A program made the translations under genes and the position numbers. Shown here piece by piece: positions 8,267-64,000 of a stretch of DNA of 64,000 bases. The first letter of the stretch is position 1. Each line of letters begins with the position of its first letter. Below the pieces are notes generated by a model. The model did not search any database. It was not told the origin of the DNA and saw only the letters and a program-made list of their open reading frames with translations. This DNA is from Dehalococcoidia bacterium (GTDB lineage Bacteria > Chloroflexota > Dehalococcoidia > Plut-88900): NCBI GenBank assembly GCA_965207225.1, contig CBDBLV010000004.1, positions 768,001 to 832,000 of the forward strand. The letters run 5' to 3'.

Positions 8267-8986
8267 TCAGGCGAACTGCCGGAACTCTGCGCCCCTCACA
8301 CTTGCCTTCCCATCCCACCGACGGACCAATAAGATTGACGAGGCCGCCACGTCACGCCTATCACTATGGGCAAGCGCGCGTATTCCATTGTCTGAGGGAA
8401 CAAACCTGCGGCCCTCGGCGTCCGGCAGATTCAGGGCGACGATCAGTATGGAATCGCTAGCTGTTCCCTGAGCGCGTACATCCGGCTCGTCTCGATTCCG
8501 AGCAGACTCGTGTCGGTTCGCTCCATCGGCCAGTACGCCAGCGCGCCCGGCGGCGCGTGGAACGAGCGCGAGCGGCGACCCGGACTGCGGCTCCGCACTT
8601 GGAACACACTCACGCGCGCTAGACCGGATGCTGACTCGCTTTCCCAAGTGGAAGACCGGCGCCGCCAGGAAGGACAACGAGGGTCCAACCTCCACGGGTG
8701 GGCGAAGATTGGGACGACCCTGTGACCTGACGTGGCTCAGCGTGTCCGGCAGCCTCCGAGATCCGGCGGTTAGCCCGGACGGCAGGAAGCGCTCCCTATC
8801 TCCTCGGAGTCGTACCAGTATGATGAAGGCTCCGGCGCCGGTCAGCGACCGCGCGCTGTCCAAGACCCCTTGCAGAACCGTGTCAAGGTCCAGGCCCTCG
8901 TTGATGCGCGGGCTGGCATCCCTCAGCCGGGACAGCCGGTCTCTGAGGGCTTGTATCTTCACGTCGCGCGCATCGCCTCGATTCAT
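8267..8986 (-). pseudogene. Decayed GAF-type hybrid sensor kinase fragment (paralog of 59673-61910)
   Basis: RBS GGAGG precedes the ATG at 8986. ALRDRLSRL...LQGVLDSARSLTGA...APVFHLGK aligns with ALRARFAKM...LQEIVDSARSLTDA...TPIFHLGK, after which similarity is lost. Confidence 0.75.
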
Positions 8987-9100
8987 CGCTACCCCTCCGG
9001 TTGGTCTGCGGAACACGCGTCTCTCGGGTCAACGGCAAGCGGCCAGACGGAAAGCCCGATTGAGATGCGCAGGGGCAACCATAGCGGTTCCTACCCAAAA

Positions 9101-9167
9101 CTCACGGTAAACTCATGATAAATCGGCGATATTCTCACGGCAATCTTACACATATTCTGTTTAGTCT
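9101..9167 (+). promoter_or_regulatory. Four tandem boxes (CTCAC/CTCAT/CTCAC/CTTAC) plus a possible -10; putative OmpR-type site
   Basis: Boxes start at 9101, 9112, 9134 and 9145 (spacing 11/22/11), with TAGTCT at 9162. The geometry and position relative to a divergent kinase gene match the sites at 56026 and 62032. Confidence 0.5.
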
Positions 9168-9490
9168 GCGGTACACTTGCCTCGTTTTGGGCGGTTGGGG
9201 CGTCGCGGAAGTCGCTTCCCACCCTGGAACCGCGAGGAACGCCCCGGTTCGACCGCTGTGGAGAATACGCCTGTGGAGAAAGTACGTGGGGCGGCCTGGT
9301 CGACTGCAGCTTCGAAAGCGTCTCCGCCAGTTACGCAGCTGGGCGACAGCTTGGTCGGTCGGAAGGACATGAGAACAACGAACGGCGACGAGACGGCTTC
9401 TCGCGAAGCGGGCGGTGCAGTGGGCGACATCCGAGGAAGAACTGAGAGAACCATGTTATCCGCTGGACATTCCCGTAGGCGGTCTTGTGA

Positions 9491-9850
9491 ATGAAACTTG
9501 GAGGGGCCAACCGATTGTCGAATCGCACCATTCGAAACGCCGCGATTGGCGTGCCGACCGCGGTGGTTACATTGACGGCGCTCCTGTCCGGCAGCACTTG
9601 GGCGCAGGACGCGTCCCCCGCCTCTCCATCGGGCAAGCTCGTCGTCGCACCGCTGTCGGTCCAGCGGGAACAGACGGCCTTGGAGATGGGCTTCCACGTC
9701 GAACCCGCCTATCTAGAAGTGAGGATTGAGCATCGCGAGCGCTTCACCCCAGAGGGAGAATGGCGCGACGACGCGGGAACCCCTTGGATGGCGCTAGGAG
9801 CAATCGCGCCGACTTGGGTCGCGCTGAACGCAACGCCCGCTCGGTCATAG
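9491..9850 (+). pseudogene. Short secreted-protein ORF, probably a truncated N-terminus
   Basis: Signal-peptide-like segment (AAIGVPTAVVTLTALLSGSTWA-QD) followed by an early stop. Confidence 0.35.
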
Positions 9851-10012
9851 AGGACACGATTCGACGCGTCGTCGCAGACACCGGGAGCAAAACGCGGTGG
9901 GTGGGACGACATACGACTCTGATGGATTACACGGCGTGTCAGGCTCTACCCATGCCGTTGGATCAACATATGTATCTGTACCCAGATTCTCTGAGAATGT
10001 GACGAGGCGATT

Positions 10013-12368
10013 ATGGAGCGCATGAATCTAACAAACTCAAGACTCCTGCTGTTGGCAGGTTCGTTCGTCCTAGCGCTGGGGATAGCCCTGTTGATCGCGT
10101 TGTCCGGTTCACAACCCGTATCCGGGCAGGTCGAGGGAGAGCATGAGTGCAACGAAAAAGACCCTTCGCAGGACTGCACACATACGCCCACGCCCGTGCC
10201 TCCGCCACCGCCACCGCCTCCGCCTACCAATACGCCTGTGCCTCCGCCACCGCCGCCACCGCCGCCTACCAATACACCCGTGCCACCGCCTCCTCCACCT
10301 CCGCCGCCTACCAATACGCCCGTGCCACCGCCTCCTCCACCTCCGCCGCCTACCAATACGCCCGTGCCGCCCGATCCCCCAAGCGAACCCCAAGGTGAGC
10401 TTCGGTTCTCTAGACTACTCCGTGGGAGAGGGGAGCAACATCGCGGTGATCGTGAATCGGACTCAGAACACGTCCGGCAGTCTGAGCATTACCATCAGAG
10501 TCTCCCACGGATCGGCTGAGGACGGAGACTACACGGTTCCTGGACTGTCCAACGGCAGGCTGTCGCTGTCGTTCAGCGACGGCGACGATTCCGAGTCGTT
10601 CACGATCAGAACACACCATGATTCCGACTGCAACAACGAGACCGTGAACGTCAGGTTCGGAACCCTGCCCTCTGGAGTGGATGAAGGTTCGCATACCAGC
10701 GCGACGGTCACGATCAACGACGATGATGCGTGTCCGACTCCGCCCGGAAAGCCTCAAAACCTCACCTACACTCCCGCAAGGACGGAGGGCAGAGTCGTTC
10801 TCGACTGGGATGCCGCTTCCGGCGCCACTGGATACCAGGTGCGGCAGTGCGTGAGACGCCACAACAATCCCAATCGTTGCGACTACTCCACGGTTCAGAC
10901 TCTGGGAAGCGGGACGACCATAGCCACAGTGAGCGGACTTGCCACTGGCAGGCTTCATGACTTCAGAATTCGAGCCACCAAGGGATCGCTGAGCGCCGAT
11001 ACGGACACGATCACGGTCAATCTGAAGCCGGCGCCTCGGAATCTAACGGGCGCTTACGTGGCGGGGCAGCACCGGAAGCTAACGCTCACGTGGGACCCCG
11101 TGCCTAATCCCGACGTAGGCGACGACTTGGACGGCAACTACCACGTGGAACAACTCTTCCCGAACAATAATCCTCTTGACTCTGGTTGGAAGAGGCTGAC
11201 GGATACTCCCCGCGACGGAGTGACGATAGGCTCGATAGCCAGCGTCGGCGGCAAGCTCATGGTCGTAGTCAGCGGGCTGACTCCCGGAGAGTCGTACCAG
11301 CACAGGATAAAGGCCGAGAGCGTACAGGGAAAGTCGGTCGAGTCCAACGTCGTCACGACGACCGTTACGGACGAGTCTCCCACCGTTGCGCCGCCCACGC
11401 CGACGCTCAGCCTTCTGATAGGCAACAGGGGCATCCAACTCGATTGGACGGAGAATGTTCCAGGAGCGGATTCCTACCAGGTCAGCGCAACGCCGGACAG
11501 TCCTTCGCTGGCATTCACGCCTCTTCCATCCCACGCGGTTGTTGAGATACCCGGTAGCTTCTGGGTAGATGTCGGCAAGGGGAGCGGCGCTGTCCAGATA
11601 TTCGGATTGACGCCCGGAACACGGTATACGTTCTCCGTCAGGGGACACAACGGTTCGGGTGGCGGCCCCGCCGCAAGCGCGGAGCATGTGGCGCTTGAAC
11701 CAACTCACTGGTGGGGACACCAAGCCGATCATACCGTCGGTTACATCATCGGAAATATCACCGAGCCGCTTCTACAGGCCGCGATTCCTGATGCGGTCGC
11801 CGATTGGAACGGCAGGCTGAACTTCGGTCTGGAGATATGCGATGACTCGGACAGGGACTGTAACAGGCGGAATTCCGATAGGTTCATAGCCACTATCAAG
11901 ACGGTGGCTCCAAGTTCGCCCAGCGACAATATCACTGGGTGTGGACGGAGCGTGGCCTGCGTGAGTCCTACAGGCTCAACTATAGAATCGCCCGGCGGCG
12001 TCGGCAGGCATATGACGGACATGGATGTGATCTTCGAGGACCCGCCCTATGGGTGTACCAATGGCAATAATCGCTGTCGGGCTGCCGATCAAGTGACGTA
12101 TGAATGGACCAATGACCCGAACAAGAGCCACGTTGTCGTAGATCCGACAATTAGCTGGAGACATCTATACCTTCATGCTGGGCATTTGGCGCTCCACGAA
12201 TTGGGACACACGCTGGGGGCGCCGGACTTCTACAGCGATGTGATGACGGGACTCGATGGCGAGACTGCCATAATGAACCTTCAGTGGGATGCCAAGACGA
12301 TACAGGACGAGGACATCGCGCAGTTGGACGCGATCTACAGAACTCATTCGAGCCACTCTGCAAGGTAG
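10013..12368 (+). CDS. Secreted modular zinc metallopeptidase: signal peptide, polyproline repeats, Calx-beta, about 3 FN3 domains, metzincin domain; one-base frameshift near 10376-10382
   Basis: ORF 10013 supplies the signal and (TNTPVP9)n. ORF 10143 supplies PKVSF...VTINDDD (Calx-beta), FN3 units, and HELGHTLGAPD with Met-turn AIM. The frames join at GATCCCCCAAGCG if one base is removed. Confidence 0.8.
10190..10372 (+). repeat. 42-bp tandem repeat (about 4.3 units) encoding TNTPVPPPPPPPPP
   Basis: ACCAAT recurs at 10226, 10268, 10310 and 10352. Confidence 0.95.
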
Positions 12369-12404: not shown

Positions 12405-14245
12405 ATGAGGTCACTAACGATTTTCGCCATGCTGTTGGCCTGCGCGCTGCTGTCCTGCTCCCCAACTACGCAACGGTCCGAGCCGAACGAGGGCCTAGTG
12501 GGCGCGCCACAGCGCACTGGCAACCCTCCAAGTCTGTCGGCACAGACCGGCAACCCCCCAGCCACTGGGACCACGGCATTTGCGTACTTCGGCGAAGAAT
12601 CCATCGAAGAGCGGATTGCAGGGAGAGACACTATCGTCAGGGCGCGCTTGGATACCACAACGGTTGAGGTTGCCACGTCGACGGTCGAGGGATGGAGTGA
12701 CTATTACTACGTCGCCCTGAGATTTCACCTAACGGTGAGCGAGTATCTAAAGGGAAGCGGCGCGAACAGCATCACCGCGTTCACGATTCAGGGCGATTAT
12801 GACACGCGGAAGGAAGCCGAGGACGCCATGCCGGACATCCTCGCAGGAAGAGTTACCACCTGGGATGATCGAGAAGCGTTCTTCTTCTTGACTGAAGATG
12901 ATCCAGAAGACACTTTCAGTGGATCGGTTCAGGGCGCTAACGACTATTTTCTGTCGGTTGGAGACTCGGAACAGGATATGTACAGCCTTCACAACAGACA
13001 CAGAAAATTGTGGCTTCCGTCTGCTGGAACGGCAGCCACAGGAGATGACCAAGAGTTTCTGCTTGCGGCGCCTCAGCAGGGTATAGACACTCCTACGATA
13101 ACCCTCGGAGAGTTGAAGAGCAGGATCGCCGCTGTCAATGCCGAATTGAACGGAGGCGATGGCTCGGAGGCTTATAAGAACTGCATCAGAACAAAGTATG
13201 CGCTTGAGCGTAATGATAGCTTCCGCGAATTAACGCAATCTAGGACGAACTACGAGCCGGTATGGGGAGGCGATGGCTTTGCATCCGGCCAGCCCGCCGG
13301 GACTGAGGTGTACAGGTACTTCCGTGAAGGTTTCGCCCAGCCTGCCGAAGACAAGTCAAAGTTATGGCTTGACGGTCGGGACGCGGACTTGTTTGCCGTC
13401 AAACTCAGCGATCTTCGGCCCGGCCCGGACTTTGACAGGGACGGTCAGTTTGACCTTTTTGAGTTCGACCAGAGCATCGTGTCTGTCCGTCCCATACCGG
13501 CGGGAACATATGAGTTCAATCATAACTACATGCCTTACGGGTTCCTTGCTTGTGATCACTCTTACTCGTTTGAGATGACGGCAAATGTCCTCACCCCCGA
13601 CGGCTCGTTGCACGAGTTCTTCTTCGATCCAGTCACGGACGGCGCGGCGGTTGCCGCCGACGCCACGAACGGCGTTCTGAAGCCCGCCGCGTTCACCGAC
13701 GCCAACGACTCGGCGGCGACCGTCAGCCGCATCGAGTGGGAGTCCGGCATGGTGAAGATGACGGTCAGCCCGCATACCGGACTCACAGGCCACTTCGTGG
13801 ACTTCATCGAACTGGACGGAACGGTGTCGCTGTCGCTGGCCGTATCCGCCGCGACGGTGGACGGCGCGAACGATACGCTGAGCTGGTCGGTGACAACCCA
13901 GCCTTGGGAGGACGGAGACCTGCTGATGGTTCGGATACGCGAGCCTTACGCTCCCGCGCCCACGGGTCTGCGTTCGTCGAGGGCGGGCAACGGGTACTTG
14001 ATCGCGTGGAACGCGGTGTCCGGCGCGAGCCAGTACGCGCTCCAGACACGCATTCCCGGCGTGCAGGACTGGACCGACACCACGCCGTTCGCCGAGGAGA
14101 ACAGGCAATGGTGTACGTACCCTCCCAGGATCTGTGGTGCGCGTTGTCATACGAGTTCAGGGTACGCTCGTACGGAGACGGGATTCGCTACGCGACCCAA
14201 TGGGGCGAGCCGTCGTCCGAGGTGGTCAGGGAGCGACAATGCTGA
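12405..14245 (+). CDS. Lipoprotein partner of the peptidase: TIMP/NTR-like N-domain, conserved LHEFFFDP domain, C-terminal FN3 (frameshift near 14103)
   Basis: Lipobox ALLSC; paralogous to 15561-17237. The FN3 domain begins in the main frame (APAPTGL...IAWNAVSGASQY) and finishes in the 13736 frame (YEFRVRSYGDG...WGEPS, stop at 14245). Confidence 0.75.
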
Positions 14246-14341
14246 CGCGGGTGGACACAGGCGTCAGCGAGAAGACAATACCGAGTCACTGTATTCAGAG
14301 GCATTCAGACACACACAGCATCATTTCTTGGAGGCGAATCA

Positions 14342-14752
14342 ATGAGCGACGCAACCATCTGGGACAGATACGACATTGGCCGAAAAGTAGAAAGTCTATT
14401 GGCCGAGGTCGAATACTACAACCCGGACCATCACTTTGGCAGGCCCTCCGTAACGCCCTACCAACTCGCGATAATGTTCAAGGAGCGATTCCCGGCGGAC
14501 TTCAAGAGCATTGGCCTCCCGGTCGGAGGAGCGGGAACCGGCGAGAGAAGAAGTCTGGCTCAGTACCTCGCGGGTCAGATGGCTCGTAAGATGGCCAATG
14601 GAGAGTTGCCCAACATTGAAGGAGGATTCCTATCGAACACTCAACTTCGTAACTTATCTTTCGACGACAGCGACGGTACGGTCATCACGTCGTCGTCGAC
14701 AAATTCCCAATACGACGTATCGCTCTTTCGTTTGAGGTCAACCGACCATTGA
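14342..14752 (+). CDS. Hypothetical cytoplasmic protein (136 aa)
   Basis: RBS GGAGG, ATG start and natural globular composition; no motif recognised. Confidence 0.7.
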   Translation: MSDATIWDRYDIGRKVESLLAEVEYYNPDHHFGRPSVTPYQLAIMFKERFPADFKSIGLPVGGAGTGERRSLAQYLAGQMARKMANGELPNIEGGFLSNTQLRNLSFDDSDGTVITSSSTNSQYDVSLFRLRSTDH

Positions 14753-14791: not shown

Positions 14792-15538
14792 GGAGGCTAC
14801 AGCGCGCCGACGCCCGCCAACATCGGACACCAAGAAGACCACACCGCGGAGTACGAGGTGGTCTTCATGCCTGCTACGCCGCCGAATTTGCCCTCAGGCA
14901 TTCCGGATCCCGCCGTGGTCATTCCGGCGGCGATCGGACCTGTTGCGGAGGCTTGGAACACGGCGGCGGCGATAGTGGGCAAGAACCTGCAGATATGCGA
15001 GGTCCGCGCCTGCGGCGTCAGCAACCACGACATTGGAACCGTGACGGTCAAGACCGTCCCAGTGAACACAATGGCCGTACCCACCGACACCGATCACAAC
15101 CACGGCTGCGGCTCGATCGTGGCTTGCGTCAAACTAGGTGTTCCGACTTCTTCAGCGTTCTCCTCGGACGGTCCCGGCAACCATCTGAGGGACCTATGGC
15201 TGGTTATCGAGGAGCCAGCATGGGAGTGCCGGGGGGATACCGATCGGGCGACCGGCGATTGCATACCTGTAGAACACGCCAGGATCTACTGGACCGGCAA
15301 CTCAGGGTTGGATAGGAATGATGTTCCTGGAGTCCCTAATTCTTACCATCACTACATCGGCTCCATACTCATCCACGAGTTCGGACACACACTGGGCCTG
15401 CCCGACTTCAGCGCCGACCATACGCTTATGAACTTGCTTGCAGTAATGGATAACCCCCACAAAAACAAGACGATAACCGATGAGGACGTAGCGCAGCTGC
15501 GCGCGATCTATGCCGTCCACGACTCGTCCGGCCACTAA
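14792..15538 (+). pseudogene. N-terminally truncated metzincin domain, paralog of the C-terminus of 10013-12368
   Basis: The frame is open from the TAG at 14789: IGHQEDHT...AWN...GCGSIVACV...HEFGHTLGLPDF...AVM...KTITDEDVAQLRAIY. It has no signal peptide or RBS. Confidence 0.75.
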
Positions 15539-15560: not shown

Positions 15561-17237
15561 ATGATGAGCGCAAGAAGCGCCGCAGCGCGAATATCCGCCG
15601 TAATCCTATTGATCGCGGTGGCGGCAATGCTGCCGGGCTGCGGCCTCTTCGACGACGGGCAGAATCCCGAAGCAGCGACGTTGGTGGAGCCGACGCCGTC
15701 AGCGACAACTCCCGCCTCAGCGGAGCCGCAGCCACCCGCCGCCGGTCCCAGCTCGATCGAAGAGCGGAAGCCCAAAGTAGAGGCATCGGTAAAACCGCCG
15801 CCGACCACAACGTCCGCCTCGGTAGCGACAGCGTCACTCGCCTACGACGGCCCAAGTTCGCTGGAAGAGAGGATTCTCGCATCCCCGGTGATCGCCAAGG
15901 TGCGGCTTGACTCGGTTTCCTCGACCACGGAATCCGGTCCAACCGTCCAGGGCACGAAGTACATTTTGCTATTGGAGTTCAGTTTCAGCGTTCTCGAGTA
16001 TCTGAAAGGCAGCGGCAACAACGATATTGTGGCCGTCTGGAACTCAGATCAACTATTCGGCACACGCCAAGAGGCCGAGGCCGCGCTGCCCGCTATCGCC
16101 GCGGCGCGGGACGCCCAGTGGGACGACCACGAAGCTATCGTCTTCCTGAAACATTCCCAGACGTATCTTGCTAGCACGCAGCGGGCGGAACGATATTATC
16201 TGTCTGGGGTGGTGCTCGGCTCATTCGGCCTTGACGATAACTACAGCCTGGCCAGCCGATACAACAATCTGTGGCTGCCCGCCGAGGCGTCCGCTGACGC
16301 TACGTCCCAGCCGAGTGGAGACCAGCAGCGCTTTCTGATGTACACGCCGGTGGCCACGGGGACGGCTCGCACAATAACGCTCAGCGAGCTGAAGACGCGG
16401 ACCGCGGCGGTCGCCGCCAAGATCGACGCCAGCGACGGCTCCGAAGAGTACATGGAATGCGTCTCCCGCACATATTATTACGAGGGAATCAACAGCTACC
16501 GTATGGCGACGGAAGGCCGCGGCTATTACTATAGTACCCCCGACCACGAACTGGGATCGGGGCTAGCCGCCTCTGCCGCGGTATATGAGCAGAATCCAGT
16601 TTTCGGGGGCCTTCCCGACAAGCGAGGACTGATCTGGCTTGACGGAGGAGACGCAGACCTGTTCAGCGTAGAGTACGACGATGCGGTTCCCTACGACTTC
16701 TCTGGCGACGGCGTGAACGACACCATTCGATATGCCTATCGCGTGGTTGCGTCGCGACCGCTCCCAGCAGGGGTGTACAGATTCCACTTCAACAACCGGG
16801 AAGTTCACTTCGTTCCCTGCGACGGTTACACGATCCGCTACGAGTGGACGGTCACCGTCAACGCCCCCGTCGGCTCGCTGCACGAGTTCTTCTTCGACCC
16901 GGTCACCGACGGCGTGGCGGTCGCGGCCGACTCGACGCATGGAGTACTCTATCCCGCCGGGTTCACCGACGCCAACGGCGCCTTGGCGTCCATCAGCCGC
17001 ATAGAGTGGGAGTCCGGCACGGTGGCGATGTTCGTCGCTCCACACACCGGTCTCGCGGACCACTTCGTGGACTTCATCGAGCCGGACGGCTCGGTGTCGC
17101 TGTCGCTGTCCTTTTCCGCCGCGACGGTTGACGTCGCGACCGGCGCCCTGAGATGGGCGGTGGCGTCCCGGCCGTGGGAGGACGGCGATCTGCTGATGGC
17201 GCGCATCCGAGTCGCCCAGACGCGCCAGAATCATTGA
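15561..17237 (+). CDS. Lipoprotein partner (TIMP/NTR-like N-domain plus LHEFFFDP C-domain)
   Basis: RBS GGAGG, lipobox LPGC, Pro/Thr/Ser linker; collinear similarity to 12405-13940. Confidence 0.85.
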   Translation: MMSARSAAARISAVILLIAVAAMLPGCGLFDDGQNPEAATLVEPTPSATTPASAEPQPPAAGPSSIEERKPKVEASVKPPPTTTSASVATASLAYDGPSSLEERILASPVIAKVRLDSVSSTTESGPTVQGTKYILLLEFSFSVLEYLKGSGNNDIVAVWNSDQLFGTRQEAEAALPAIAAARDAQWDDHEAIVFLKHSQTYLASTQRAERYYLSGVVLGSFGLDDNYSLASRYNNLWLPAEASADATSQPSGDQQRFLMYTPVATGTARTITLSELKTRTAAVAAKIDASDGSEEYMECVSRTYYYEGINSYRMATEGRGYYYSTPDHELGSGLAASAAVYEQNPVFGGLPDKRGLIWLDGGDADLFSVEYDDAVPYDFSGDGVNDTIRYAYRVVASRPLPAGVYRFHFNNREVHFVPCDGYTIRYEWTVTVNAPVGSLHEFFFDPVTDGVAVAADSTHGVLYPAGFTDANGALASISRIEWESGTVAMFVAPHTGLADHFVDFIEPDGSVSLSLSFSAATVDVATGALRWAVASRPWEDGDLLMARIRVAQTRQNH

Positions 17238-18425: not shown

Positions 18426-19304
18426 CTACGCGATAGCCGCCTCCGGCCGCTTCAGCATGGCGGAGCAGCCGCGCTCGACGACATGCTCCACCGACACCCG
18501 TCCCCGGCTGTCGTACCCCGTTCGGAAGGCGTACTCCACCGTCGCCCCCTCAGGCGCCCGGCCACCGGTTCGCACGGCGCCTCCGCCGTCGCCGCGTCCG
18601 GGCCCGCCCGCGCCGCGCACGACCATGCCTCGGCGCTCGCCCATGCGCCAACCCATCACCTTCAACTCGACGGGAATGACTCGTTCCTCAGCCTGAGTCG
18701 GTTGGAAGAGCGCCGCGTGCAGCCTCTTCAATACACCCGGAGACGGACTGCGCCTGCCGGTCATGATCTGGGAGAGGTGGCCTGAGCTGACGCCGGCCCG
18801 CCGGGCGACCTCGTTCTGGCTGATCCCGAGAGCGTTCATCCGATCCCACACGGCGCGCCGATCCACGTCGGCGCATCGCGCGGGCGCGACCTTCGCCGGG
18901 GCCTCCAGCGCCGATTCGACCCGCGCCTGTACCTTCACGCCCATGCTCCTGTGACCGCGGGACACCTGGATCATGTAGCCGTAGGACACTCCCGCCCGCT
19001 CGGCCAGGTCCTGCATGCTCATGCCCATCTCCCGGGCCCGCTCCCTGATGTAGCTGCTCTCCGCGCCGACCACATCCCCCTGCCGGTAGACGACGCCCTG
19101 CGCAGGGACCTCTCCCAGCGCCTCCGTCGCCTTCTCCCGCATCGCCGGAGTCCAGGGCCTGCGCCCGGTGGCGATGCTCGACAGGTGACTGGGGTTCACG
19201 CCCATCCTGTCCGCCAGCTCTCCCATGGTCAGTCCCCGCCGCCTGGCTGCGGCCCTGAGCGCCGTCTCAGATCTCCTGGTGGTTGCAGTGTTGGTAGCCG
19301 TCAT
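18426..19304 (-). CDS. Protein with three tandem XRE HTH domains and a Gly/Arg-rich C-terminal domain
   Basis: RBS AAGGAGG before the ATG at 19304. Three HTH units: GLTMGELADRMGVNPSHLS, GMSMQDLAERAGVSYGYM and GISQNEVARRAGVSSGHLS. Confidence 0.85.
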   Translation of the reverse strand: MTATNTATTRRSETALRAAARRRGLTMGELADRMGVNPSHLSSIATGRRPWTPAMREKATEALGEVPAQGVVYRQGDVVGAESSYIRERAREMGMSMQDLAERAGVSYGYMIQVSRGHRSMGVKVQARVESALEAPAKVAPARCADVDRRAVWDRMNALGISQNEVARRAGVSSGHLSQIMTGRRSPSPGVLKRLHAALFQPTQAEERVIPVELKVMGWRMGERRGMVVRGAGGPGRGDGGGAVRTGGRAPEGATVEYAFRTGYDSRGRVSVEHVVERGCSAMLKRPEAAIA

Positions 19305-21282: not shown

Positions 21283-21605
21283 TGTCCACTCCCCATCGAA
21301 TCGCCCACCGGCGCTTTGTCCACTTTCGTAGCTGCGGCTGTCCTGTAGGGATGGAACGAGCCCCGGAATCGAATCGCTTGCTCTGATGTGGCAGGTTGCC
21401 CTATTCACCCCGGTTTCAGCTACGAAATCGCTCTCCCCGCAAGTTGTCGTTCCAATCGATCCCCTGTACACGGGTAGTACACCACAACGGGCGTTCCAAA
21501 TATCAGGCCTCGCGAGGGGGGCCTCTACGCGATCCCGGGCGCGTCCGCGATCCCCTCGCACGCGCCATGCCTGAGTCGAGAGACAGGTCCGCCGTGCCCG
21601 GCACA
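20840..21605. repeat. Long direct repeat A, copy 1 (about 760 bp)
   Basis: Near-identical by eye to 36858-37615. The upstream part recurs at about 38290-38600 and in degenerate form at about 22070-22190. Confidence 0.9.
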
Positions 21606-30450: not shown

Positions 30451-30480
30451 CGCGCAATCAATTCCTGGAGGGGTGATGAA

Positions 30481-31059: not shown

Positions 31060-31084
31060 CTCAGTTCCTCCCGGGGATGGTGCG

Positions 31085-31654: not shown

Positions 31655-31668
31655 GATTCTGCTCCCGA

Positions 31669-54125: not shown

Positions 54126-54851
54126 ATGGTCGGTTCTCGACGTCTTCCGGGATTCCAAATCGAGAGGGTCTGGGCCAAGAATTTTCGCAGCATCGCTGAT
54201 GCAACCCTGGACCTAGGTCCAATGACCATGCTCGTCGGACCCAATGCATCGGGCAAAAGCAACGTGCTCGACGTTCTCAGGTTCTTGAAAGACTCGCTGA
54301 GGTTCTATCTGGAAGCGGCGGTTTCGCTGCGCCGCGGGTTCGACGCGATCCTGCGCCGAACCGAAGGGCCGCGTCCCGAATCAATGGAAATCGGGATTAC
54401 CGCTACCATAGGCGGTACTCCGCGCCAGCCAGACCGGTTTCGAATTGAATACAGCTATGCGCTGGGCGCCGAACCCGACGGTGGTTACGTCGTGGCATGG
54501 GAACTCGCGACCGTGGACTCGGACCCTGCTGGTCAACGAGAACCTCTGGCGCTCAGGGTGGAAAACGGACGCATCTCTTCCCCAAGCCAATGGGCAGAAC
54601 ACATCGTGCCGGATGCACGTTCCCGACCGGACGACTCCGAGAGGGCTGGGTTTGACGCCACGGATTTATATATGCGACGCTTAGTGAGGGCGTGGGCAAT
54701 TGGCAGAGCCCCTGGCGCCAGGGAAGTTGAGGAACCGGCCGCGTTCATGGCACAGGCCCTGGAGGTCATGCTAAACCGTATCGCCCTGACTAGGTACTAT
54801 CACATCTTCCCGAATACGCTCCGGGAGCCTCAAAGCCAGGTTCGAGCATAA
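54126..54851 (+). pseudogene. Truncated AAA_21/RecF-like ABC ATPase
   Basis: IERVWAKNFRSI...LVGPNASGKSNVLD (Walker A); the ORF ends without the ABC signature or Walker B. Confidence 0.8.
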
Positions 54852-55060: not shown

Positions 55061-55333
55061 ATGTTCTACTGGTTACTGATCGGAGTAATCGCATCTTCAA
55101 TCGGGCTGGTTCTCACAGGCGGTATGTTCATGGGCATCTTGTTCGGGAGCAGTGATGGCTCGGCAAAGGCATCAACCAACCAGTTCGTTCAGGGGGTTGT
55201 CTTGACCTCAATAACCGGAACGATAGCTGCCCTGCTTACCTACATGGGCATGATAGTCAAGGGAATTGTGGACAACTTGACATCAGGCAATAGCGAAGAT
55301 AACAGAGAACAGGACAACAACAATGAGAACTAG
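55061..55333 (+). CDS. Small two-TM membrane protein
   Basis: Two hydrophobic helices and a polar tail; convergent with the kinase remnant. Confidence 0.5.
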   Translation: MFYWLLIGVIASSIGLVLTGGMFMGILFGSSDGSAKASTNQFVQGVVLTSITGTIAALLTYMGMIVKGIVDNLTSGNSEDNREQDNNNEN

Positions 55334-55912
55334 CCCACCGGCGAAGACTCCACCAGCGCGGCCAACCGTCGCCTCTCCGCCTCCGCTTGGTCTCTGACCC
55401 TACGCTCTTCGTCATGCCTGAGCGCGTTGGCGATGGCGACCGACGCCTGGGAAGCGAACATGACCAGTATCTCTTCGTCTTCTACCGAGAACCCCGTACT
55501 CCCTTCATTCTTGGCAAGGCAGATGCTGCCCAAAGACCGGCCGCGATGGTTGATAGGGGCGCCGAGAAAGGACTTCATCGGCGGGTGGTTCTCAGAGAAG
55601 CCGACCGAGAAGGGATGCATGGCAATATCCGCGATTCTCAGCGGCTCTTGAATCTCGTTCAGATAGCCGAGCAGCCCCGGCGCTCGCCGTTCAGAGGTAA
55701 AGTCCGAAGTGGCGAACTCTCCGATCCGCCCTGAATCGTCGAAGACGCCGACCGCTCCATATCGAGCGCCGGTCAGATCGCGCGCGCCGTCAACGATTTC
55801 CTAAAGCGTGGCGTCAAGTTCCCATATCTCGGCTACACGACCGCTGATCTCGCTCATCTTGGCGAAGCGATCCCGCAGGGCGCTGATCTCTCCGCCTATG
55901 GGCGTCTTCCAT
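55330..55912 (-). pseudogene. GAF-domain remnant of a hybrid kinase (paralog of 59673-61910)
   Basis: RBS GGAGGAGG, an early frameshift, an in-frame TAG at 55801-55803, then EIVDGARDLTGARYGAVG...LVESSPVG and truncation. Confidence 0.85.
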
Positions 55913-56025: not shown

Positions 56026-56090
56026 TTTGATGGTTTTTTGATGGAAACGGGGTTGTTTTTGATGTCCATTTGATATCCGACCACTATCAT
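56026..56090 (+). promoter_or_regulatory. Four TTTGAT(G/A) boxes plus -10 TATCAT; putative OmpR/PhoB-type activated promoter
   Basis: Boxes at 56026, 56037, 56058 and 56069; -10 at 56085; conserved with 62032-62096. Confidence 0.7.
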
Positions 56091-56204: not shown

Positions 56205-56747
56205 ATGAGACCGATAACGCGAATCATGCTGATGCTGGCGACCCTAGCGGTAGTGGTCGCCCTCGCCACCACGCAATTTCTGAATGAGCGAGTTGAGGCA
56301 GGTCACAATTGCAGTTGGCCCTATTCCGGAAACAGCGTTCCTGTGAAATACCGATGGGGTTCCATCAATACCGCATGGAAGGCGGCGTTTACCACAAGTA
56401 TCAGCGACTGGAATGGGCTCGGGACCGACGTCACATTGAGCTATGATGCCTACGGTAAGCTGTGGATGGGCCAATACAATCAAAACGACGGCCAGTATGG
56501 TCTGAATCAGAACTGGTGCAGTGGAAACGACATAGTCAATTCTAACAACTGGGGCAATCTGCATTACGAACCTCACACGTTGAACGAACGGAGAAGCATA
56601 ACAGGCCACGAGCTCGGACACGGCCTTGGTCTGCATCACACAGGATCCGGGCAATTGATGTACACATACTGCTGCCCGTCAAGCAGTCTCTACAAGCCGA
56701 ACAATGACGATAAGAACGACCTGAACGCCTTGTACAACGGACCTTAA
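56205..56747 (+). CDS. Secreted matrixin-like (M10-type) zinc metallopeptidase
   Basis: RBS AAGGAG, signal peptide, SISDWN, HELGHGLGLHH, Met-turn QLMY, DD...LNALY. Confidence 0.9.
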   Translation: MRPITRIMLMLATLAVVVALATTQFLNERVEAGHNCSWPYSGNSVPVKYRWGSINTAWKAAFTTSISDWNGLGTDVTLSYDAYGKLWMGQYNQNDGQYGLNQNWCSGNDIVNSNNWGNLHYEPHTLNERRSITGHELGHGLGLHHTGSGQLMYTYCCPSSSLYKPNNDDKNDLNALYNGP

Positions 56748-56813: not shown

Positions 56814-57413
56814 ATGAGACAGATACTTAGATCGATCGCCGTCGCGATTGCTGTAGGATTGATTTCTCTTGCAATAGCATGTGGCGATACGACGACCACA
56901 GTAAGCAGTGCGTACGTGACAGCTAGTTCGGTTGAAGAACTTGTAGGTCGGTCGTCCTTGGTAGTCATTGGCACGGTCGCGTCCACCGGACCCGAGCGCC
57001 GTGAGATACCTGGTAGGTTGCCCAGTGATCCTACGCAAATCGATCCCAACTACACTGGCGTAGGACAAATCTACGAAATTGAGGTCGAAAGGTATCTGAA
57101 GGGTACGGGGGGCACAACAATACGAGTGGTGCAATTCGAAGGCAGCATCGTATCGCTCGGAGGTCAAGTCAGAGAGATTCAGTCGGAGAGCGCCGGCCAT
57201 CCCTTGACAAGTGCCACACGTTATCTTCTCTTCCTAATCCCTCAGGGCCAAGTTGATGATCTATGGCTCGGGACCGCGCAACCATTCCGATTTGCTCTAT
57301 CGAGTGGTCTCGCTAAGGCTGAGAGTCCGGAAGGAGGAATACCGGATCTATTCCCTAACCGCTCAGAGTCAACCTTGATTAGTGAGGTTGAAACGATCCT
57401 CACGCGAGGTTAA
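56814..57413 (+). CDS. Single-domain lipoprotein with TIMP/NTR-like pattern
   Basis: Lipobox AIAC; SVEELVGRSSLVVIGTV...YEIEVERYLKG...IRV...RYLLFL. Confidence 0.8.
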   Translation: MRQILRSIAVAIAVGLISLAIACGDTTTTVSSAYVTASSVEELVGRSSLVVIGTVASTGPERREIPGRLPSDPTQIDPNYTGVGQIYEIEVERYLKGTGGTTIRVVQFEGSIVSLGGQVREIQSESAGHPLTSATRYLLFLIPQGQVDDLWLGTAQPFRFALSSGLAKAESPEGGIPDLFPNRSESTLISEVETILTRG

Positions 57414-57503: not shown

Positions 57504-58211
57504 ATGCGTAGGCTAATCATATCATTCATATTGGGCATTCTCACCCTTTGCTGTAACGTGTCAAATCCAGTTCCGCCATCATCTATCGCCATAGAGAAAC
57601 AAGAACAAGACGGTTTCACTCCAAGCGCCTCGACACAGACAACTCCTGAGACATTCTCCACGCCCGCTACGCCTACGGTAGTTCCCCTTCATGAACAGAA
57701 ACAGCCTCCCGCTCCATCCCTAACGGCGACATCGAGCCTGCCAATCAGTCGCTCGGAGTCGCAGCCGGTCGCCCCAGTGCCGACGACTACACCGAGCCTG
57801 CCAATTCCCCCAGTTCCTCAGACCTATATCGAGTACCGTGGAGGTCTCTATCCGGGACGGCTAAGCAGCTACTGCTGGCCGATGAGTGCGAATAGCTCTG
57901 TCTGTACAGGCGGTGTAGCGTGGCAAGAGTTGGACAAGGCTCCCGCGGTCCGTATGAATCAAGGGGACGACTTCAAGATTGTCATTACAGGCGCCGATCA
58001 CAGTCCGGATCCAGAACTAACGCGATTTGCAGTGTTCACCGTAGTGGAAACAGAACCATTGCTGCGACTGGGAGAGCAAATCTATTCGATTGACGTGGAT
58101 GGGAACGTACATGTACCTGACCTTCCCGAGGGAATTTACTTCGCAGCCATTTCCCTGAAGTATCACGTCGGTGACGTTTCCCACGGTTTCAAGGTAGAGA
58201 TAGTTCATTAA
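57504..58211 (+). CDS. Putative lipoprotein: Pro/Thr/Ser linker plus SSYCW-motif beta domain
   Basis: RBS GGAGG; MRRLIISFILGILTLCC signal; GRLSSYCW...LPEGIY...GDVSHGFKVEI. Confidence 0.75.
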   Translation: MRRLIISFILGILTLCCNVSNPVPPSSIAIEKQEQDGFTPSASTQTTPETFSTPATPTVVPLHEQKQPPAPSLTATSSLPISRSESQPVAPVPTTTPSLPIPPVPQTYIEYRGGLYPGRLSSYCWPMSANSSVCTGGVAWQELDKAPAVRMNQGDDFKIVITGADHSPDPELTRFAVFTVVETEPLLRLGEQIYSIDVDGNVHVPDLPEGIYFAAISLKYHVGDVSHGFKVEIVH

Positions 58212-59672: not shown

Positions 59673-61910
59673 CTATCCCTTCGCCATCCGGTAGCCGACG
59701 CGGGGCTCGGTGAAGATGTACTTTGGATTTGTGGCGTTGTCTCCCAGCTTGCGCCGAAGGTTTCTGAGTGTGGCGCGAAGCAATTGAACGTCGCCTGCGA
59801 ACTCCAACCCCCAGACCCGTTCGAGGATCTGGTCGTGAGTCATCACCCGTCCGCCGTTGACGGAAAGTTCGAACAGCAGCTTGTACTCGGTAGCGGACAA
59901 CGACGCCTCATGACCGGATATGGCGACCGCGCGGTCTGTATAGTTGATGCTCAACTCTCCCAGATGAAAGGGTTGACGCCGGGTAGCCGCGCCTGCCGCC
60001 TGCCGCTTTCGCAGTGACGCTTCGACCCTAGCGATCAGTTCAGTCGAAGAGAAGGGCTTGACGATATAGTCGTCGGCGCCCATATCGAGAGCCTTCACCA
60101 CGTTATCTTCCTGATCATTGGCGGACAGGAATATGATCGGCGTGTCGGACACCTCGCGGACGCGGTTCATCAACTCGAACCCGTTCGCGCCGGGCAGCGT
60201 CAGGTCCATCAAGACAAGCTGGGGGCGCTCCGTATCCAGGAAACGCATCATCTCGCCCGAGTTGACGGCGCCGAAAGTCGCGTACCCGCGGTCGTCGAGT
60301 ATGGTTCGGAGCAGCCGCAGGATTTGACGATCGTCATCCACCGCGAGAATCTTCGTCATGTCGCCGGATCTGAGCGCCGGAGCGCCGATGGTGGGCGGCT
60401 GAACGGCGTCGGCTAATGCGGGAATCGTGAATACTATCCGAGTGCCCTGTCCTTCGCCGCCGCTCTCAGCGCGGATTCTGCCCCCGTGCGCTTCCACTAT
60501 GCCCTTGCAGATAGCAAGCCCAAGACCTTCGCCAGCGACGCTTCGCTCGCTGCCGGCGGTCTCTATCCTCGAGAACTTCTTGAACAGGTTGGATAGCTGG
60601 TCGGCGGGTATTCCCCTGCCTTCGTCCGATACTGAGAAAGCGACGTAGATGTCGTCCTTAGACGCGGTTAGCTTGATGGTCGCGGTCTCGCCGGAGTACT
60701 TGGATGCGTTGGATAGTAGGTTGTTCAGCACCTGAACGATTCGCTTCCCGTCCGCCGAGACCTTCGGCAGGTTCGGCGAGATTTCCACCACTACCGGGTT
60801 TCGTCGCCCTTGGCGTATGAACGCCATCCTTGCTTCGTCAACAATCGTCCCCACTTCCGCAGGCTCGATATCCACCGATATAGACCCCGATTCTATCTGC
60901 GTCATGTCGAGTAGATTGTTCACGAGGTCGCGCAGGTGATCCGCCTGCTGATCTATCATGCGAAAGTACTGCATCATCTCGGAACCTGTCGGGGAAGTGG
61001 AACTGCCCAGCACAATGCCGGCGCAGCCCTTAATGGTAGTCAATGGCGTTCGCAGCTCGTGGCTCACCATGGCGAGGAATTCGCGGCGTAGCCGCTCCAC
61101 TTCCTCCAAGGGAGTCATATCCTGTATCACGGCGACGGCGGACACTATCTCGCCGTCTTCGGAATAGATGGGCGTGGCGTTGACGAGGGTAGGCACCTTG
61201 CGCCCGTTGGGGAGATCGAACAGTATCTCTTCCGCCCGCGTGACGTCGCCGCGGTCCAGCGCCCTTGCCAACGGGCGCTCGTTGCTTTCGTACTTCTCCC
61301 CGTCCATGCGTCGGTAGAGCGCAACCTCGTGGTAGCGCACGAGGGTAGAGCCTGGCTCCGGGGAGACTCCCAAGATGCGCTCCGCTTCCTGATTGACCGA
61401 CGCGAACGTTCGGGTTTTGGCGTCAACCACCAGAACGCCCACCGGCGAGGTCTCCACCAGCGCAACCAATCTGCGCCGCTCGGTCTCTGCCTGCTCTCTG
61501 CTTCGCCGCTCTTCCTGATGTCTGATGGCGTTGACTATGGCGACGGCGGCTTGCGACGCGAACAGCGCCAGTATCTCTTCGTCTTCTTCCGAGAACTCAT
61601 CGCCGCCTTCCTTCCCGGCAAGGTATATGTTGCCCAGCGACTTGCCGAGATGGAAGATAGGCGTTTCGAACGACGGCCGCCGTTCTGGAGTAACGCCGGA
61701 AGTGATGAATTCCCCAATCCGCCCGGATTCGTCGAACAGCCCGACCGCGCCGTACCGAGCGTCGGTCAGCGAGCGAGCGCTGTCAACGATTTCCTGAAGC
61801 GCGGCGTCCGGTTCCCAAATCTCGGAGACACGGCAGCTGACCTCGATCATCTTGGCGAAGCGAGCGCGCAGGGCATCGGTCTCTCGCCTAGCGGCGTCGG
61901 CCTTCTTCAT
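59673..61910 (-). CDS. Cytoplasmic one-polypeptide two-component protein: GAF-PAS-HisKA-HATPase-REC-OmpR-type winged helix
   Basis: RBS GGAGG, ATG at 61910. Motifs VSHELRTPL, NLLSNASKY, DEGRG, GEGLGL, LAVDDD...LMDL...KPF, and SATEYKLL...LRRKLGD...TEPRVGY. No TM segment. Confidence 0.93.
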   Translation of the reverse strand: MKKADAARRETDALRARFAKMIEVSCRVSEIWEPDAALQEIVDSARSLTDARYGAVGLFDESGRIGEFITSGVTPERRPSFETPIFHLGKSLGNIYLAGKEGGDEFSEEDEEILALFASQAAVAIVNAIRHQEERRSREQAETERRRLVALVETSPVGVLVVDAKTRTFASVNQEAERILGVSPEPGSTLVRYHEVALYRRMDGEKYESNERPLARALDRGDVTRAEEILFDLPNGRKVPTLVNATPIYSEDGEIVSAVAVIQDMTPLEEVERLRREFLAMVSHELRTPLTTIKGCAGIVLGSSTSPTGSEMMQYFRMIDQQADHLRDLVNNLLDMTQIESGSISVDIEPAEVGTIVDEARMAFIRQGRRNPVVVEISPNLPKVSADGKRIVQVLNNLLSNASKYSGETATIKLTASKDDIYVAFSVSDEGRGIPADQLSNLFKKFSRIETAGSERSVAGEGLGLAICKGIVEAHGGRIRAESGGEGQGTRIVFTIPALADAVQPPTIGAPALRSGDMTKILAVDDDRQILRLLRTILDDRGYATFGAVNSGEMMRFLDTERPQLVLMDLTLPGANGFELMNRVREVSDTPIIFLSANDQEDNVVKALDMGADDYIVKPFSSTELIARVEASLRKRQAAGAATRRQPFHLGELSINYTDRAVAISGHEASLSATEYKLLFELSVNGGRVMTHDQILERVWGLEFAGDVQLLRATLRNLRRKLGDNATNPKYIFTEPRVGYRMAKG

Positions 61911-62031
61911 ATCGCCTCCCGAATCGTGCTGGCATCCCATTGGACCATCTCGTCCGGCGACGGGATGGGAGCGCATCATATCACAGTCCCTGCCGCGTGG
62001 GAGTGTGCTGGGGGAAAGCCATCCTGGATTC

Positions 62032-62096
62032 TTTGATGGTTTTTTGATGGAAATGGCGTTGTTTTTGATATCCGTTTGATGTTGGGCGTCTATGAT
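62032..62096 (+). promoter_or_regulatory. Four TTTGAT(G/A) boxes plus -10 TATGAT
   Basis: Boxes at 62032, 62043, 62064 and 62075; -10 at 62091; identical geometry to 56026-56090. Confidence 0.7.
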
Positions 62097-62187
62097 GGGC
62101 AGTGTATGGGTTAGAGAGGGGCGACGGATGGACAGGCTGAAGGCCTGCTTGTAGTGTCAAAATCCAGAATACACGATCTAGAGGAGA

Positions 62188-63888
62188 ATGATCATGACAC
62201 GGGTATTGTTTCTAAAATTTCTGCTACGGTGGATGGTACTGCCAATAGTAGCAGTTACGGTTTTCGGTGTCTCGGTACTTGCTGGGGCGAGTACCGCTTA
62301 CGCTTACAACGATAGCGGTTCTACACCGTGCGTGTGGCAATACGAAGCAAACACGACACTCCAGCTACCATATGTTGCTGACCCAGATCACCCGCCCAGC
62401 GGCGCGTACGCAACTGCCTACTCTCGAGCGCGATCGTCATGGAATGGTTCAGACACGCCAGTTTCCTTTCAGCATGACGGTTCACAGTCCAACCATAAGA
62501 TAGGAGTTCGAGACCTTGGACAGTCGGGTAGCGTTTCCTTTTAGGTGGTAGAAGACAGCAGTCCACGTCGCTGAAGCAGGATCATCAGGTTGTGTGGATT
62601 CCACCAGGTTCCCATCCGCTCCCGCCGTCTAAGCTCACGATTCAACCGTTCAAGCAGAGAGGTGGTCTTGTAACGTGACTGTCCACTCACAAGGTGCGCC
62701 AAGCCCTTGCTCAACGCCTTCTCGCACCAGTACTCGGCTTCGCCGCCACTCAGGTACATTGCGTGTTCAGCGTGAGTCCGAGCCTCAGCCGGACTCTCAG
62801 ACCTCAGTAGTTTCAGAGCTTCGGAGAACCCCGCCTCGCCTATGTTCCTGAGGTATTCTCTCAGCAGATGGAACTGACACAGCTGGTGGTTGGCCTCTCT
62901 GCCATAGGTCATCTCTATCGCCGACGCTATCGCAAGGTCCCCGTCGCTCACTATATGTACAGGAGACTCCGCGCCACGCATATACGCCTCGGCAACAGTC
63001 TCCTCCCAACTGTCGAACGTCGCCATCACGTTGCCCCTGTCGTCACGGACCACCTTCATCTCCACAGCGCCCTGTGCGGTTCGTGTCCACAACCCGTCCA
63101 TCTCCAGGACATCCCCACCCATGCTGGTCGCTCGCAGCTTCTCCTTCCTTATCCACTTGCACAGCGTACTCTTTGCGAATCCAAACAACTTCCCGACCTG
63201 AGCGTAGCTCAGACCCAGCGCCGCCAACTCTATCGCCTTCTCTCTGGTTTTTTTGAGTACCGGTTCCTCTTTTCGTCTCCCAGAAGCTCCATTCCACTAC
63301 TCATGAGTCCACACTCAGAGCAGCGGAACTTCGGGACCGATAGCCTGAGTTCACCGTCCTTTGTGATTATCGAGCGCGGGTAGCTTTGGTGTCTGCTCAT
63401 CGCAAGGTCGCACTCAACGCACATCGGCCTGTAAGCGTCCAGGGCGGACTGGAGTCTGTCCTGCATATACTGGGCCATCGTACGATCTCTCTGTTCTTCC
63501 AATTGATATAGCAGACCCGACATCGCTTGCCCCTCCTCAATGGTGTGCCTGAGCTCATCCTATAACCTGACCACCTAAAAGGAAACGCTACCGACAGTCG
63601 GGACCTCTGGGAAGAACGTCTTGGTCATGCTTTTCTTGGTTCCACAAGCGATCTGCAACGACCACACTGTTGAACTCGGCTATCTTAGACAGCAAGAGCG
63701 CGAATTACAAGAGATCAGTCGCTACTCACGAACTGGGACACTACATCGGTGTTCGACATAGTAGCGAGTCGCCCGCTGTCATGAAGACCAGTAGAAACCG
63801 CAATACGATCTATCTGGTGTACGAAGACGACGAGTGTGCGGTGAATGACAGGTACTCGCATACGAGCTACCCAGTGACCTGTGATTAG
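62188..63888 (+). pseudogene. Secreted matrixin-like metallopeptidase split by an IS
   Basis: Removing 62527-63600 restores one frame: ...ARSSWN...VRDLGQS|GPLGRTSWSC...ATHELGHYIGVRHSSESPAVM...stop at 63888. Confidence 0.9.
62527..63592 (-). mobile_element. Compact 1066-bp IS with IS256/Mutator-type (CxxH) DDE transposase in two frames
   Basis: Perfect 23-bp inverted repeats GGTAGCGTTTCCTTTTAGGTGGT; 8-bp target duplication GACAGTCG (62519-62526, 63593-63600). ORFs 63523-63230 (CxxC...CxxC) and 63227-62541 (EMDG, VSDG, QLCQFH, TTSLLERLN) join at an A7 run. Confidence 0.93.
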
Positions 63889-63916
63889 AAACAAGTAACG
63901 AAAAGGAGGTTAAACT

Positions 63917-64000
63917 ATGAAATTCAGAATGTTCGCATTCTTTGGCACCATAGTAGTTGCAGGGCTTATCTTTGGGATCCTAGTGGCTCCAAATTTGATA
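63917..64000 (+). CDS. Start of an exported or membrane-anchored protein (runs off the right edge); positional partner of the split peptidase
   Basis: RBS AAGGAGGT; MKFRMFAFFGTIVVAGLIFGILVAPNLI. Confidence 0.7.
   Translation, partial: MKFRMFAFFGTIVVAGLIFGILVAPNLI

Follow-up and report, generated by a model that had tools for sequence, protein, structure and literature searches.

The 64,000-nucleotide window analysed here (C4:768001-832000 of the 4.03-Mb, five-contig genome of a sponge-associated Dehalococcoidia bacterium) carries four pairs of genes, A to D, each made up of a metzincin-motif peptidase gene and a gene for an exported partner protein. At loci A, C and D the peptidase gene lies head-to-head with sequence of an all-in-one kinase-regulator family, with an array of four short boxes in between. 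These parts are two separable modules, a switch and its cargo, and not one duplicated cassette. We hold it somewhat on the probable side that the switch is a portable module, probably responsive to hypoxia, nitric oxide (NO) or carbon monoxide (CO), which has been reused for a separate module of a protease and a self-limiting partner. This reading is built on gene anatomy, conserved residues, box arrays, neighbour counts and trees, together with predicted folds and a predicted complex. The original prediction, made on the same stretch, had seen a recurrent cassette of kinase, promoter, peptidase and lipoprotein; that observation is real but was overstated as one intact recurrent cassette, so that it is partly confirmed and its interpretation partly supported.

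The genes of the four pairs and of their operons are the following:

9491..9850, plus strand: small open reading frame (ORF) that separates promoter A from peptidase A, with a signal-like N-terminus; no family match
10013..12368, plus strand: peptidase A, with signal peptide, 42-nt Pro-rich repeats, FN3 domains and a C-terminal metzincin domain (HExxHxxGxxD)
12405..14345, plus strand: partner A, long-type lipoprotein with an N-terminal TIMP-like domain; the C-terminal part appears frameshifted near 14120
14792..15538, plus strand: peptidase B, catalytic domain only, without N-terminus and signal peptide
15561..17237, plus strand: partner B, long-type lipoprotein, N-terminal domain of predicted TIMP/NTR fold
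56205..56747, plus strand: peptidase C, intact minimal matrixin-like metzincin with signal peptide (PF00413)
56814..57413, plus strand: partner C, intact lipoprotein of predicted TIMP/NTR OB-fold
57504..58211, plus strand: third exported protein of the C operon, Pro/Thr-rich, with one paralog on contig C2
62188..63888, plus strand: peptidase D, minimal metzincin split by an insertion sequence
62527..63592, minus strand: IS256-like insertion sequence in peptidase D, with perfect 23-nt inverted repeats and an 8-nt target duplication
63917..64000 (start; the gene runs past the window), plus strand: partner D, 212 residues from the genome, membrane-anchored or secreted TIMP-like protein without a lipobox

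The four pairs that had been proposed (gene starts 10013/12405, 14792/15561, 56205/56814 and 62188/63917) all hold, with the zinc motifs HELGHTLGAPD in A, HEFGHTLGLPD in B, HELGHGLGLHH in C and HELGHYIGVRH in D, and a Met-turn methionine downstream of the motif in all four. PF00413 matches peptidases B, C and D, and by inspection a signal peptide is present in A, C and D and absent from B. Two types of pair can be told apart: A and B, which are multi-domain or derive from that form, have HExxHxxGxxD motifs and partners of 550-650 residues, and C and D are minimal, with HExxHxxGxxH motifs and partners of about 200 residues. Peptidase B, 34% identical to peptidase A, appears from its sequence to be a remnant of a tandem duplication. 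Peptidase A has a frameshift in the assembled sequence near 10390-10400, directly after the Pro-rich repeats, and the pieces of peptidase D cover profile positions 11-102 and 105-194. The mature form of peptidase C starts straight after the signal peptide and has no pro-domain.

All four partners are matched by one profile made from relatives of partner C (E 6e-60 for C, 6e-4 for D, 2e-3 for A and 0.015 for B), which was run over the 43,728 six-frame ORFs of the genome and found one further gene there, with 0 matches in a reversed-ORF control. The gene starting at 63917 is by this match kin to the lipoprotein family, as the original prediction had implied. The AlphaFold2 model of partner C has a predicted local distance difference test score (pLDDT) of 94.4, and in a comparison with 48,161 chains (VIA-align) its top 12 matches are all TIMP/NTR/NtA (Z 10.7, root-mean-square deviation 2.6, 106 residues aligned). 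Against N-TIMP-3 the Z is 9.8, and Ser10 of the mature lipoprotein is the position matched to TIMP residue 1, so that the TIMP wedge would here be preceded by a linker and an anchor. The top 20 Foldseek rows for partner C are likewise NtA/TIMP/NTR, with nothing below E 0.001 (best 1.7e-3). For the N-terminal domain of partner B (pLDDT 80.6) the VIA Z is 9.2 with NtA and 7.2 with N-TIMP-3, the top 10 all belonging to the TIMP/NTR/NtA superfamily, while the TIMP-like assignment of partners A and D comes from the profile matches and Atlas leads. Sequence searches with the partners in Pfam, NCBIfam, PDB sequences, phages and plasmids gave nothing useful. The domain has no conserved Cys, and the free N-terminal Cys1 and the conserved disulfides of TIMPs are not present; the partner at best acts like a TIMP and is not a member of MEROPS I35. 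A full-length partner profile is matched in at least 13 of 301 genomes of the phylum and at least 36 of 401 of the class, both being lower bounds since 7-9 candidates were scored per genome and the profile includes signal and linker columns.

In this genome a partner adjoins 6 of 9 genuine metzincin-motif ORFs. Elsewhere, a metzincin gene is the immediate upstream neighbour at 23 of 52 partner-centred loci; of 28 loci found with the peptidase profile, 10 have a partner as the next gene downstream and 9 lack the zinc motif. These sets cover several Chloroflexota families, with 13 of the 23 positive partner loci from a single family; kin are not independent, 2 loci stand in both sets, and from the partner set L088 (no core match) and three loci with short flanks were dropped. 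A metagenome scan gave 4 partner loci, none with an upstream peptidase in the DNA available around them. The complex modelled from peptidase C, zinc and partner C scored 0.89, with 0.02 for the best control, where 116 of 157 solved and 2 of 215 mismatched pairs reach the mark. At least 94% of contacts are common to the runs, the partner pLDDT is at least 90 and there are 115-121 contacts. In the modelled interface partner residues 3-14 lie with His103, Glu104, His107 and His113, that is, the three zinc histidines and the catalytic Glu, and with the edge strand, and the partner barrel is also taken in. The upstream position of the metzincin in the 23 loci, the predicted TIMP fold and the passed complex model together support the peptidase and its partner as a dedicated couple, in line with the protease-plus-partner proposal made for the window. 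Two further long-type pairs are found in the genome: one at C2:84396-88101, with cadherin-like repeats and no kinase, and one at C4:751517-758350 (locus E, C4:757 kb), which has a kinase remnant of its own and is a DNA-level duplicate of locus A (77-89%); the kinase clade and the box type of both A and E differ from those of C and D.

The original prediction had not recognised the system as a described one. The pair itself is known, and the present one is a new occurrence of it: mobile elements of Listeria and of further Firmicutes encode the secreted metzincin Mtz together with Tim, a lipoprotein that is TIMP-like (LMRG_00713/00714 in L. monocytogenes; Boichis et al. 2021, PMC8235301). In that account Tim is cleaved in an Mtz-dependent manner near residues 49-55, and this region, counted from the first helix, falls on the linker that our model places in the cleft. 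An unannotated Listeria phage record with the AIMLD and LTAC motifs of the paper matches our peptidase profile over the full domain (E 1.4e-22) and the partner profile weakly (12 bits, E 7e-4 at Z=100; 0 of 80 shuffles). The systems are alike in that a minimal secreted metzincin is followed by a TIMP-like lipoprotein or secreted protein in a mobile-element context with an adjacent regulatory switch. They differ in the regulators, which in Listeria are XRE cI/cro or Agr and here an all-in-one kinase, in the additional long multi-domain type found here (FN3 peptidase, partner of 550-650 residues), and in the sponge-associated Dehalococcoidia host. In the part of the literature that was covered, we found no report of such a pair coupled to an all-in-one kinase of heme type that is mobile and has a promoter of its own.

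The kinase sequences at the three loci are:

8267..8986, minus strand: locus A kinase, decayed N-terminal (GAF) remnant of another clade than C and D; no Pfam match
55330..55912, minus strand: locus C kinase, DosS/DosT-type GAF only, with an in-frame stop, ending before the PAS; everything from PAS to the winged helix-turn-helix is lost
59673..61910, minus strand: locus D kinase, GAF-PAS-HisKA-HATPase-REC-winged helix-turn-helix, open frame with catalytic residues kept

The family has the domain order GAF-PAS-HisKA-HATPase-REC-Trans_reg_C in one cytoplasmic chain. The genome holds 14 loci of it, remnants included, with an intact paralog on contig C3 (about 68089-70470), and the family is matched in 73 of 401 genomes of the class (two candidates scored per genome). 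Catalytic residues are conserved throughout, with the phospho-His in 88 of 89 loci, the receiver Asp in 86 and the Lys in 88. The locus A remnant has its best tblastn match in L133 (residues 1-185, 48%); remnant C has kept the heme His, and kinase D carries an in-frame 45-residue deletion in the GAF core near 61676 which removes the heme-histidine segment. The all-in-one kinase that had been read at these loci is thus intact at none of them. The GAF of the C3 paralog, an intact member of the clade of loci C and D as is L223, matches GAF-A of DevS/DosS with E 1.7e-39 and DosT with E 7e-38, and this clade has kept the equivalent of His149, the distal Tyr (Tyr171 equivalent) and a DosT-like Gly, residues whose roles in DosS/DosT are described in PMC4082495. 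Judged by sequence, this clade has a GAF of the DosS/DosT heme-domain type, which would bind heme. Members with the canonical GAF lie near the midpoint root of the kinase tree, the remaining members having a diverged GAF. No NCBIfam model matched the kinase-regulator at its cut-off among the 25 matches listed, the family is not described in the literature searched, which is partial and lacks most subscription papers, and the passages of PMC6306507 that were searched do not mention these genes.

The box arrays between kinase and cargo are:

9098..9150, plus strand: promoter A, boxes AACTCAC, AACTCAT, TTCTCAC and ATCTTAC, score 32/42
56026..56090, plus strand: promoter C, TTTGAT(G/A) boxes at 56026, 56037, 56058 and 56069, -10-like TATCAT 9 nt after the last box
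62032..62096, plus strand: promoter D, TTTGAT(G/A) boxes at 62032, 62043, 62064 and 62075, -10-like TATGAT 9 nt after the last box

The exact TTTGAT array with offsets 0/11/32/43 has 3 copies in the 4.0-Mb genome, at C, at D and at the C3 paralog, all beside kinases of one clade, and three other genomes have it at four further loci together with the same recognition helix. The offsets are 0/11/32/43 in each of the 7 TTTGATG loci, and a -10-like hexamer always follows 9 nt after the last box. Promoter C is near-perfect (box score 39/42). At promoter A the consensus A of the -10 is no longer present in the hexamer 9 nt further on, the boxes are of the CTCAC/CTTAC type, like those of L133, L135 and L167, and peptidase A is about 0.9 kb away. 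Thus the claim of three loci with divergent kinase and four-box promoter stands as far as head-to-head kinase sequence and boxes at A, C and D are concerned, but A belongs to another kinase clade and another box type. Over the family, 50 of 89 upstream regions score at least 26/42 for a four-box array on the divergent strand, compared with 1 of 89 shuffles, and box similarity tracks kinase lineage (rho 0.50) in the 44 of 89 loci used after a filter on box score and position. TTTGATG boxes accompany 6/6 full kinases of the VQ[LV]LRATxRN clade, and TTTCA(C/T)G boxes 7/8 of the sister [DE]LLR[AS]TxKN clade, the remaining 1 being weak. A plain sigma-70 scan gave no promoter at C, in line with a promoter that lacks a -35 element, for which the regulator would substitute in the manner of PhoB. 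By analogy with OmpR/PhoB-type promoters, the direct repeats of 11-nt period, at a fixed distance from the -10 and replacing the -35, are putative binding sites. Regulation of the pair by the divergent kinase type is plausible.

The cargo behind the kinase family is diverse. In 29 of 89 loci it opens with an ORF of at least 700 residues; in 15 of 89 the DNA retrieved ends within the first cargo ORF, so that a C-terminal peptidase could be missed there, and a signal-peptide tally (36 of 89 loci) rests on a crude hydrophobicity rule applied to automatically picked ORFs and is not relied on. The enrichment of the kinases for peptidase/partner pairs that the cassette hypothesis called for is not seen family-wide: only 2 of the 80 foreign kinase loci have the pair as cargo, as do 4 of the 14 in this genome, the neighbours being mostly diverse secreted genes, which is largely the situation that the original prediction had named as speaking against it. 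Within the DosS-type clade the pair is found at 3 of 16 full kinases (D, L120 and L226) and at remnant C, next to other cargo such as S1 proteases, lipoproteins and secreted proteins of no assigned family; outside this clade it is found at 1 of the other 83 kinases, about 5 kb away. This mild enrichment suggests that in the DosS-type clade the pair is favoured as cargo. Complete triple cassettes are present in other genomes at L120 and L226, the L120 peptidase having the motif HEPGH. Exchange of cargo is apparent from the near-identical kinases L119 and L120, which have an S1 protease and a metzincin pair, respectively. As side observations, the sister-clade kinases at C5:405500-410900 and L119 precede an S1 serine protease operon, which in the former includes a TIMP-like gene without a metzincin and in the latter is followed, about 2.5 kb beyond, by a gene for a serpin-like lipoprotein.

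In DNA, kinase and promoter of locus C share 75-83% identity with those of locus D, yet the two partners show hardly any likeness (E 0.05). A single clade of the peptidases C, D, L120 and L226 is rejected by the approximately unbiased (AU) test (p-AU 0.0046), in a quick tree with long branches where the tested group had been named before the tree. Since the four peptidases behind the clade are not one lineage, their cargo would have been captured independently, and by sequence the portable switch appears to have captured Mtz-Tim-like pairs several times. One duplicated cassette was rejected on the peptidase clade, on the unlike partners of C and D and on the other kinase clade and box used by A; contrary to the proposed repeated duplication and diversification, the A/B and C/D pairs do not go back to a single cassette.

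Damage in the window is extensive: 3 of 4 peptidases (A frameshifted, B truncated, D split by its insertion sequence) and all three kinases are affected and only pair C is whole, so the intact cassette recurring along the window is not borne out. Loci C and D show no differences in short-read contigs, 81% of sampled words of the locus-C region are present in an independent sponge metagenome, and this second study's sample has the same kinase-C truncation and kinase-D GAF deletion. The C and D lesions are therefore not assembly errors. The second sample has a depth of about 3 and no cover across 62055-64000, and the substitutions counted against it are tiny numbers from one other sample. Of the differences, 3/3 in peptidase C are synonymous, pair C as a whole having 4 synonymous and 1 Glu-to-Asp, while 5/7 in the third protein of the operon and 3/3 in kinase remnant C are non-synonymous. 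A near-perfect promoter C and a conserved cargo C beside a drifting kinase C fit a promoter controlled in trans, either by the paralog on C3 or by the D protein with its deleted sensor.

From these observations we infer heme binding, the signal and its direction, binding of the winged helix to the boxes, control in trans, inhibition and cleavage, as follows. Low oxygen, or NO or CO at the heme, would turn the kinase on, the oxygen-bound form being off by analogy with DosS/DosT, and the phosphate would pass to the fused receiver in the same polypeptide. Winged-helix dimers on the two box pairs would then recruit polymerase in place of a -35 element and switch on the secreted gene behind the boxes, so that peptidase and partner are exported. 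Most likely the anchored partner would bind the pro-domain-less peptidase, with its N-terminal linker across the active site, and restrain the enzyme at the cell surface; there the partner would probably be cut, releasing a soluble TIMP-like piece with a new N-terminus. Kinase and promoter would travel and duplicate as a unit of about 2.6 kb, picking up unrelated cargo, and the promoter of a remnant would stay wired in trans to an intact same-helix paralog, here on C3. Sponge tissue turns hypoxic once pumping stops. More tentatively, as a possibility that we put well below the general reading, the unit may be a plug-in one-gene heme gas switch (about 2.6 kb) that puts acquired secreted genes under oxygen, NO and CO through private box codes, with orphan promoters wired in trans, and whose protease cuts the linker of a pro-inhibitor partner, so making a zinc-binding N-terminus that stops it; this would give self-limiting proteolysis of the surface or of host matrix at low oxygen.

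Several points weigh against the portable, gas-responsive switch with a self-limiting couple. Only 14 of 88 family members have the canonical DosS-type GAF motif, although 58 of 89 carry a His at the heme column, and gas sensing therefore cannot be generalised to locus A or to the whole family. L226 has a diverged GAF, and the only open kinase of the window, D, has lost its heme segment. A helix-to-box code independent of descent is unsupported (partial rho 0.055, permutation p 0.18); as the recognition helix explains the boxes no better than kinship, box binding rests on linkage and analogy. On the side of the couple, the gene directly before the partner is not a metzincin at 29 of 52 partner loci, and no partner follows at 18 of 28 peptidase-profile loci, the modelled complex may pass through its likeness to solved MMP-TIMP structures, and the Listeria pair is shown to be cleaved and not shown to inhibit (PMC8235301).

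Another reading is the model of the Listeria authors, in which the partner is the product and the peptidase a dedicated sheddase freeing a TIMP-like effector for the envelope, neighbours or host proteases. Cleavage of Tim depends on Mtz, and the phenotypes require both genes (PMC8235301), our modelled linker crosses the cleft in a substrate-like manner, and many partner genes lack a peptidase, some standing in tandem and one after an S1 protease operon. However, a peptidase without a pro-domain needs restraint, the large modelled interface takes in the barrel, beyond the cut site, and co-encoded lipoprotein inhibitors are established in Tannerella (PMC9890683), so we regard the sheddase as possible though clearly the less probable role. 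Less credit, at a level we would call unlikely, goes to a window that is mostly decaying mobile-island debris, where insertion hotspots account for the association, the cassettes are silent and the DosS-like GAF is a relic without gas sensing. The damaged genes, the transposases and defence genes around, and the divergence of the GAF in most family members agree with this, but pair C and its promoter are intact, the changes seen there in the second sample are synonymous or conservative, a paralog with the same helix and boxes is whole in the genome, and the heme residues are conserved throughout the clade. The idea of a single dedicated system of kinase, promoter, peptidase and lipoprotein, duplicated and then quickly diversified, is already disfavoured and appears improbable: the recurrence of the triple at four loci of this genome (A, C, D and E) and at two elsewhere (L120 and L226), its higher frequency in the DosS-type clade and the duplication of A and E speak for it, and the rejected peptidase clade, the unlike C and D partners beside similar kinase and promoter DNA, the other cargo at most loci and the deviating kinase and box of A speak against it.

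The portable switch and its couple can be compared to several known systems. Bacteroides hybrid two-component systems are membrane proteins with periplasmic sugar sensors and an AraC output. They share with the present family a sensor, kinase, receiver and DNA-binding domain in one chain beside the regulated genes; the family is cytoplasmic, has a GAF-PAS input and a winged-helix output, and does not belong to them. DosS and DosT have a second GAF and act through a separate NarL-type regulator, DosR. This architecture proper, with tandem GAF-A/GAF-B and a separate regulator, is not that of the kinase-regulator, which has one GAF, a PAS, a HisKA kinase, a fused OmpR-type regulator, a private promoter and many mobile copies; the likeness lies in GAF-A homology, the proximal His, the distal Tyr and the DosT-like Gly (PMC4082495). 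On the cargo side, the predicted fold is like that of animal TIMPs (MEROPS I35), which act on MMPs (M10A), and of NTR/NtA domains, with an N-terminal segment modelled in a matrixin-like cleft. The partners differ from TIMPs in lacking Cys1 and the TIMP disulfides, in having the wedge after a linker and membrane anchor, and in an identity of 8-18%. The KLIKK peptidases and potempins of Tannerella forsythia are similar in that a secreted peptidase has a co-encoded anchored or exported inhibitor, PotA being an OB-fold inhibitor of an MMP-like enzyme; potempins differ in that they block with loops, have their genes upstream of that for the peptidase and are considered to have no relation to TIMPs (PMC9890683), and none is among the fold matches listed. 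Pseudomonas AprA-AprI is a further case of a secreted peptidase co-encoded with its cognate inhibitor (cited in PMC8235301).

According to annotation scans, the surroundings of the cassettes are an island of transposases and defence genes; Rfam gave no match within the window. Other genes noted there are the following:

3057-6542, minus strand: SNF2 helicase, full-length match to PADLOC HmaA; a similar helicase adjoins the family kinase at C5:2.05 Mb
14342-14752, plus strand: 136-residue ORF between partner A and truncated peptidase B, no family match
18426-19502 and 20407-21612, minus strand: two long proteins, each with several helix-turn-helix domains
22798-25973, minus strand: SIR2-domain protein, then short prokaryotic Argonaute (PADLOC class I Aga_SIR2/pAgo, E 1e-186 and 1e-193), which we take to be SPARSA-like; the pair sits directly after the type I operon below, as an insertion
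26063-35913, minus strand: type I restriction-modification M, S and R genes, with an AbiEi/AbiEii pair, a TIR protein (ThsB-like, PDC-M50B), a PDC-M50A-like protein and a 240-residue ORF nested between M and S
44979-53654, plus strand: secreted protein of 2891 residues with five choice-of-anchor R domains and FN3, 70% GC, a type of cargo frequent behind the kinase family, yet preceded here by a transposase
54126-54851, plus strand: truncated AAA/ABC ATPase with HEC-01A-like N-terminus, abutting the deletion that took most of kinase C

The genome, though not the window, also has a dispersed element with TTGATTGAA repeats of 11-nt period, in 33 copies by exact pattern.

Pair C is an intact minimal bacterial couple of MMP/TIMP-like type (148 and 177 residues) with a confident complex model. 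Both modules, switch and couple, can be tested with small soluble proteins. With pair C one could decide if the TIMP-fold proteins of bacteria act as inhibitors, are released by shedding, or do both; the Listeria work left this question open, and it bears on the origin of TIMPs. The switch, if our reading of it is true, would combine a heme sensor for gases and a transcription activator in one compact protein whose promoter travels with it. Such a module would be a candidate inducible part of a single gene, and would reveal how sponge symbionts that are uncultured couple newly acquired secreted proteins to oxygen.

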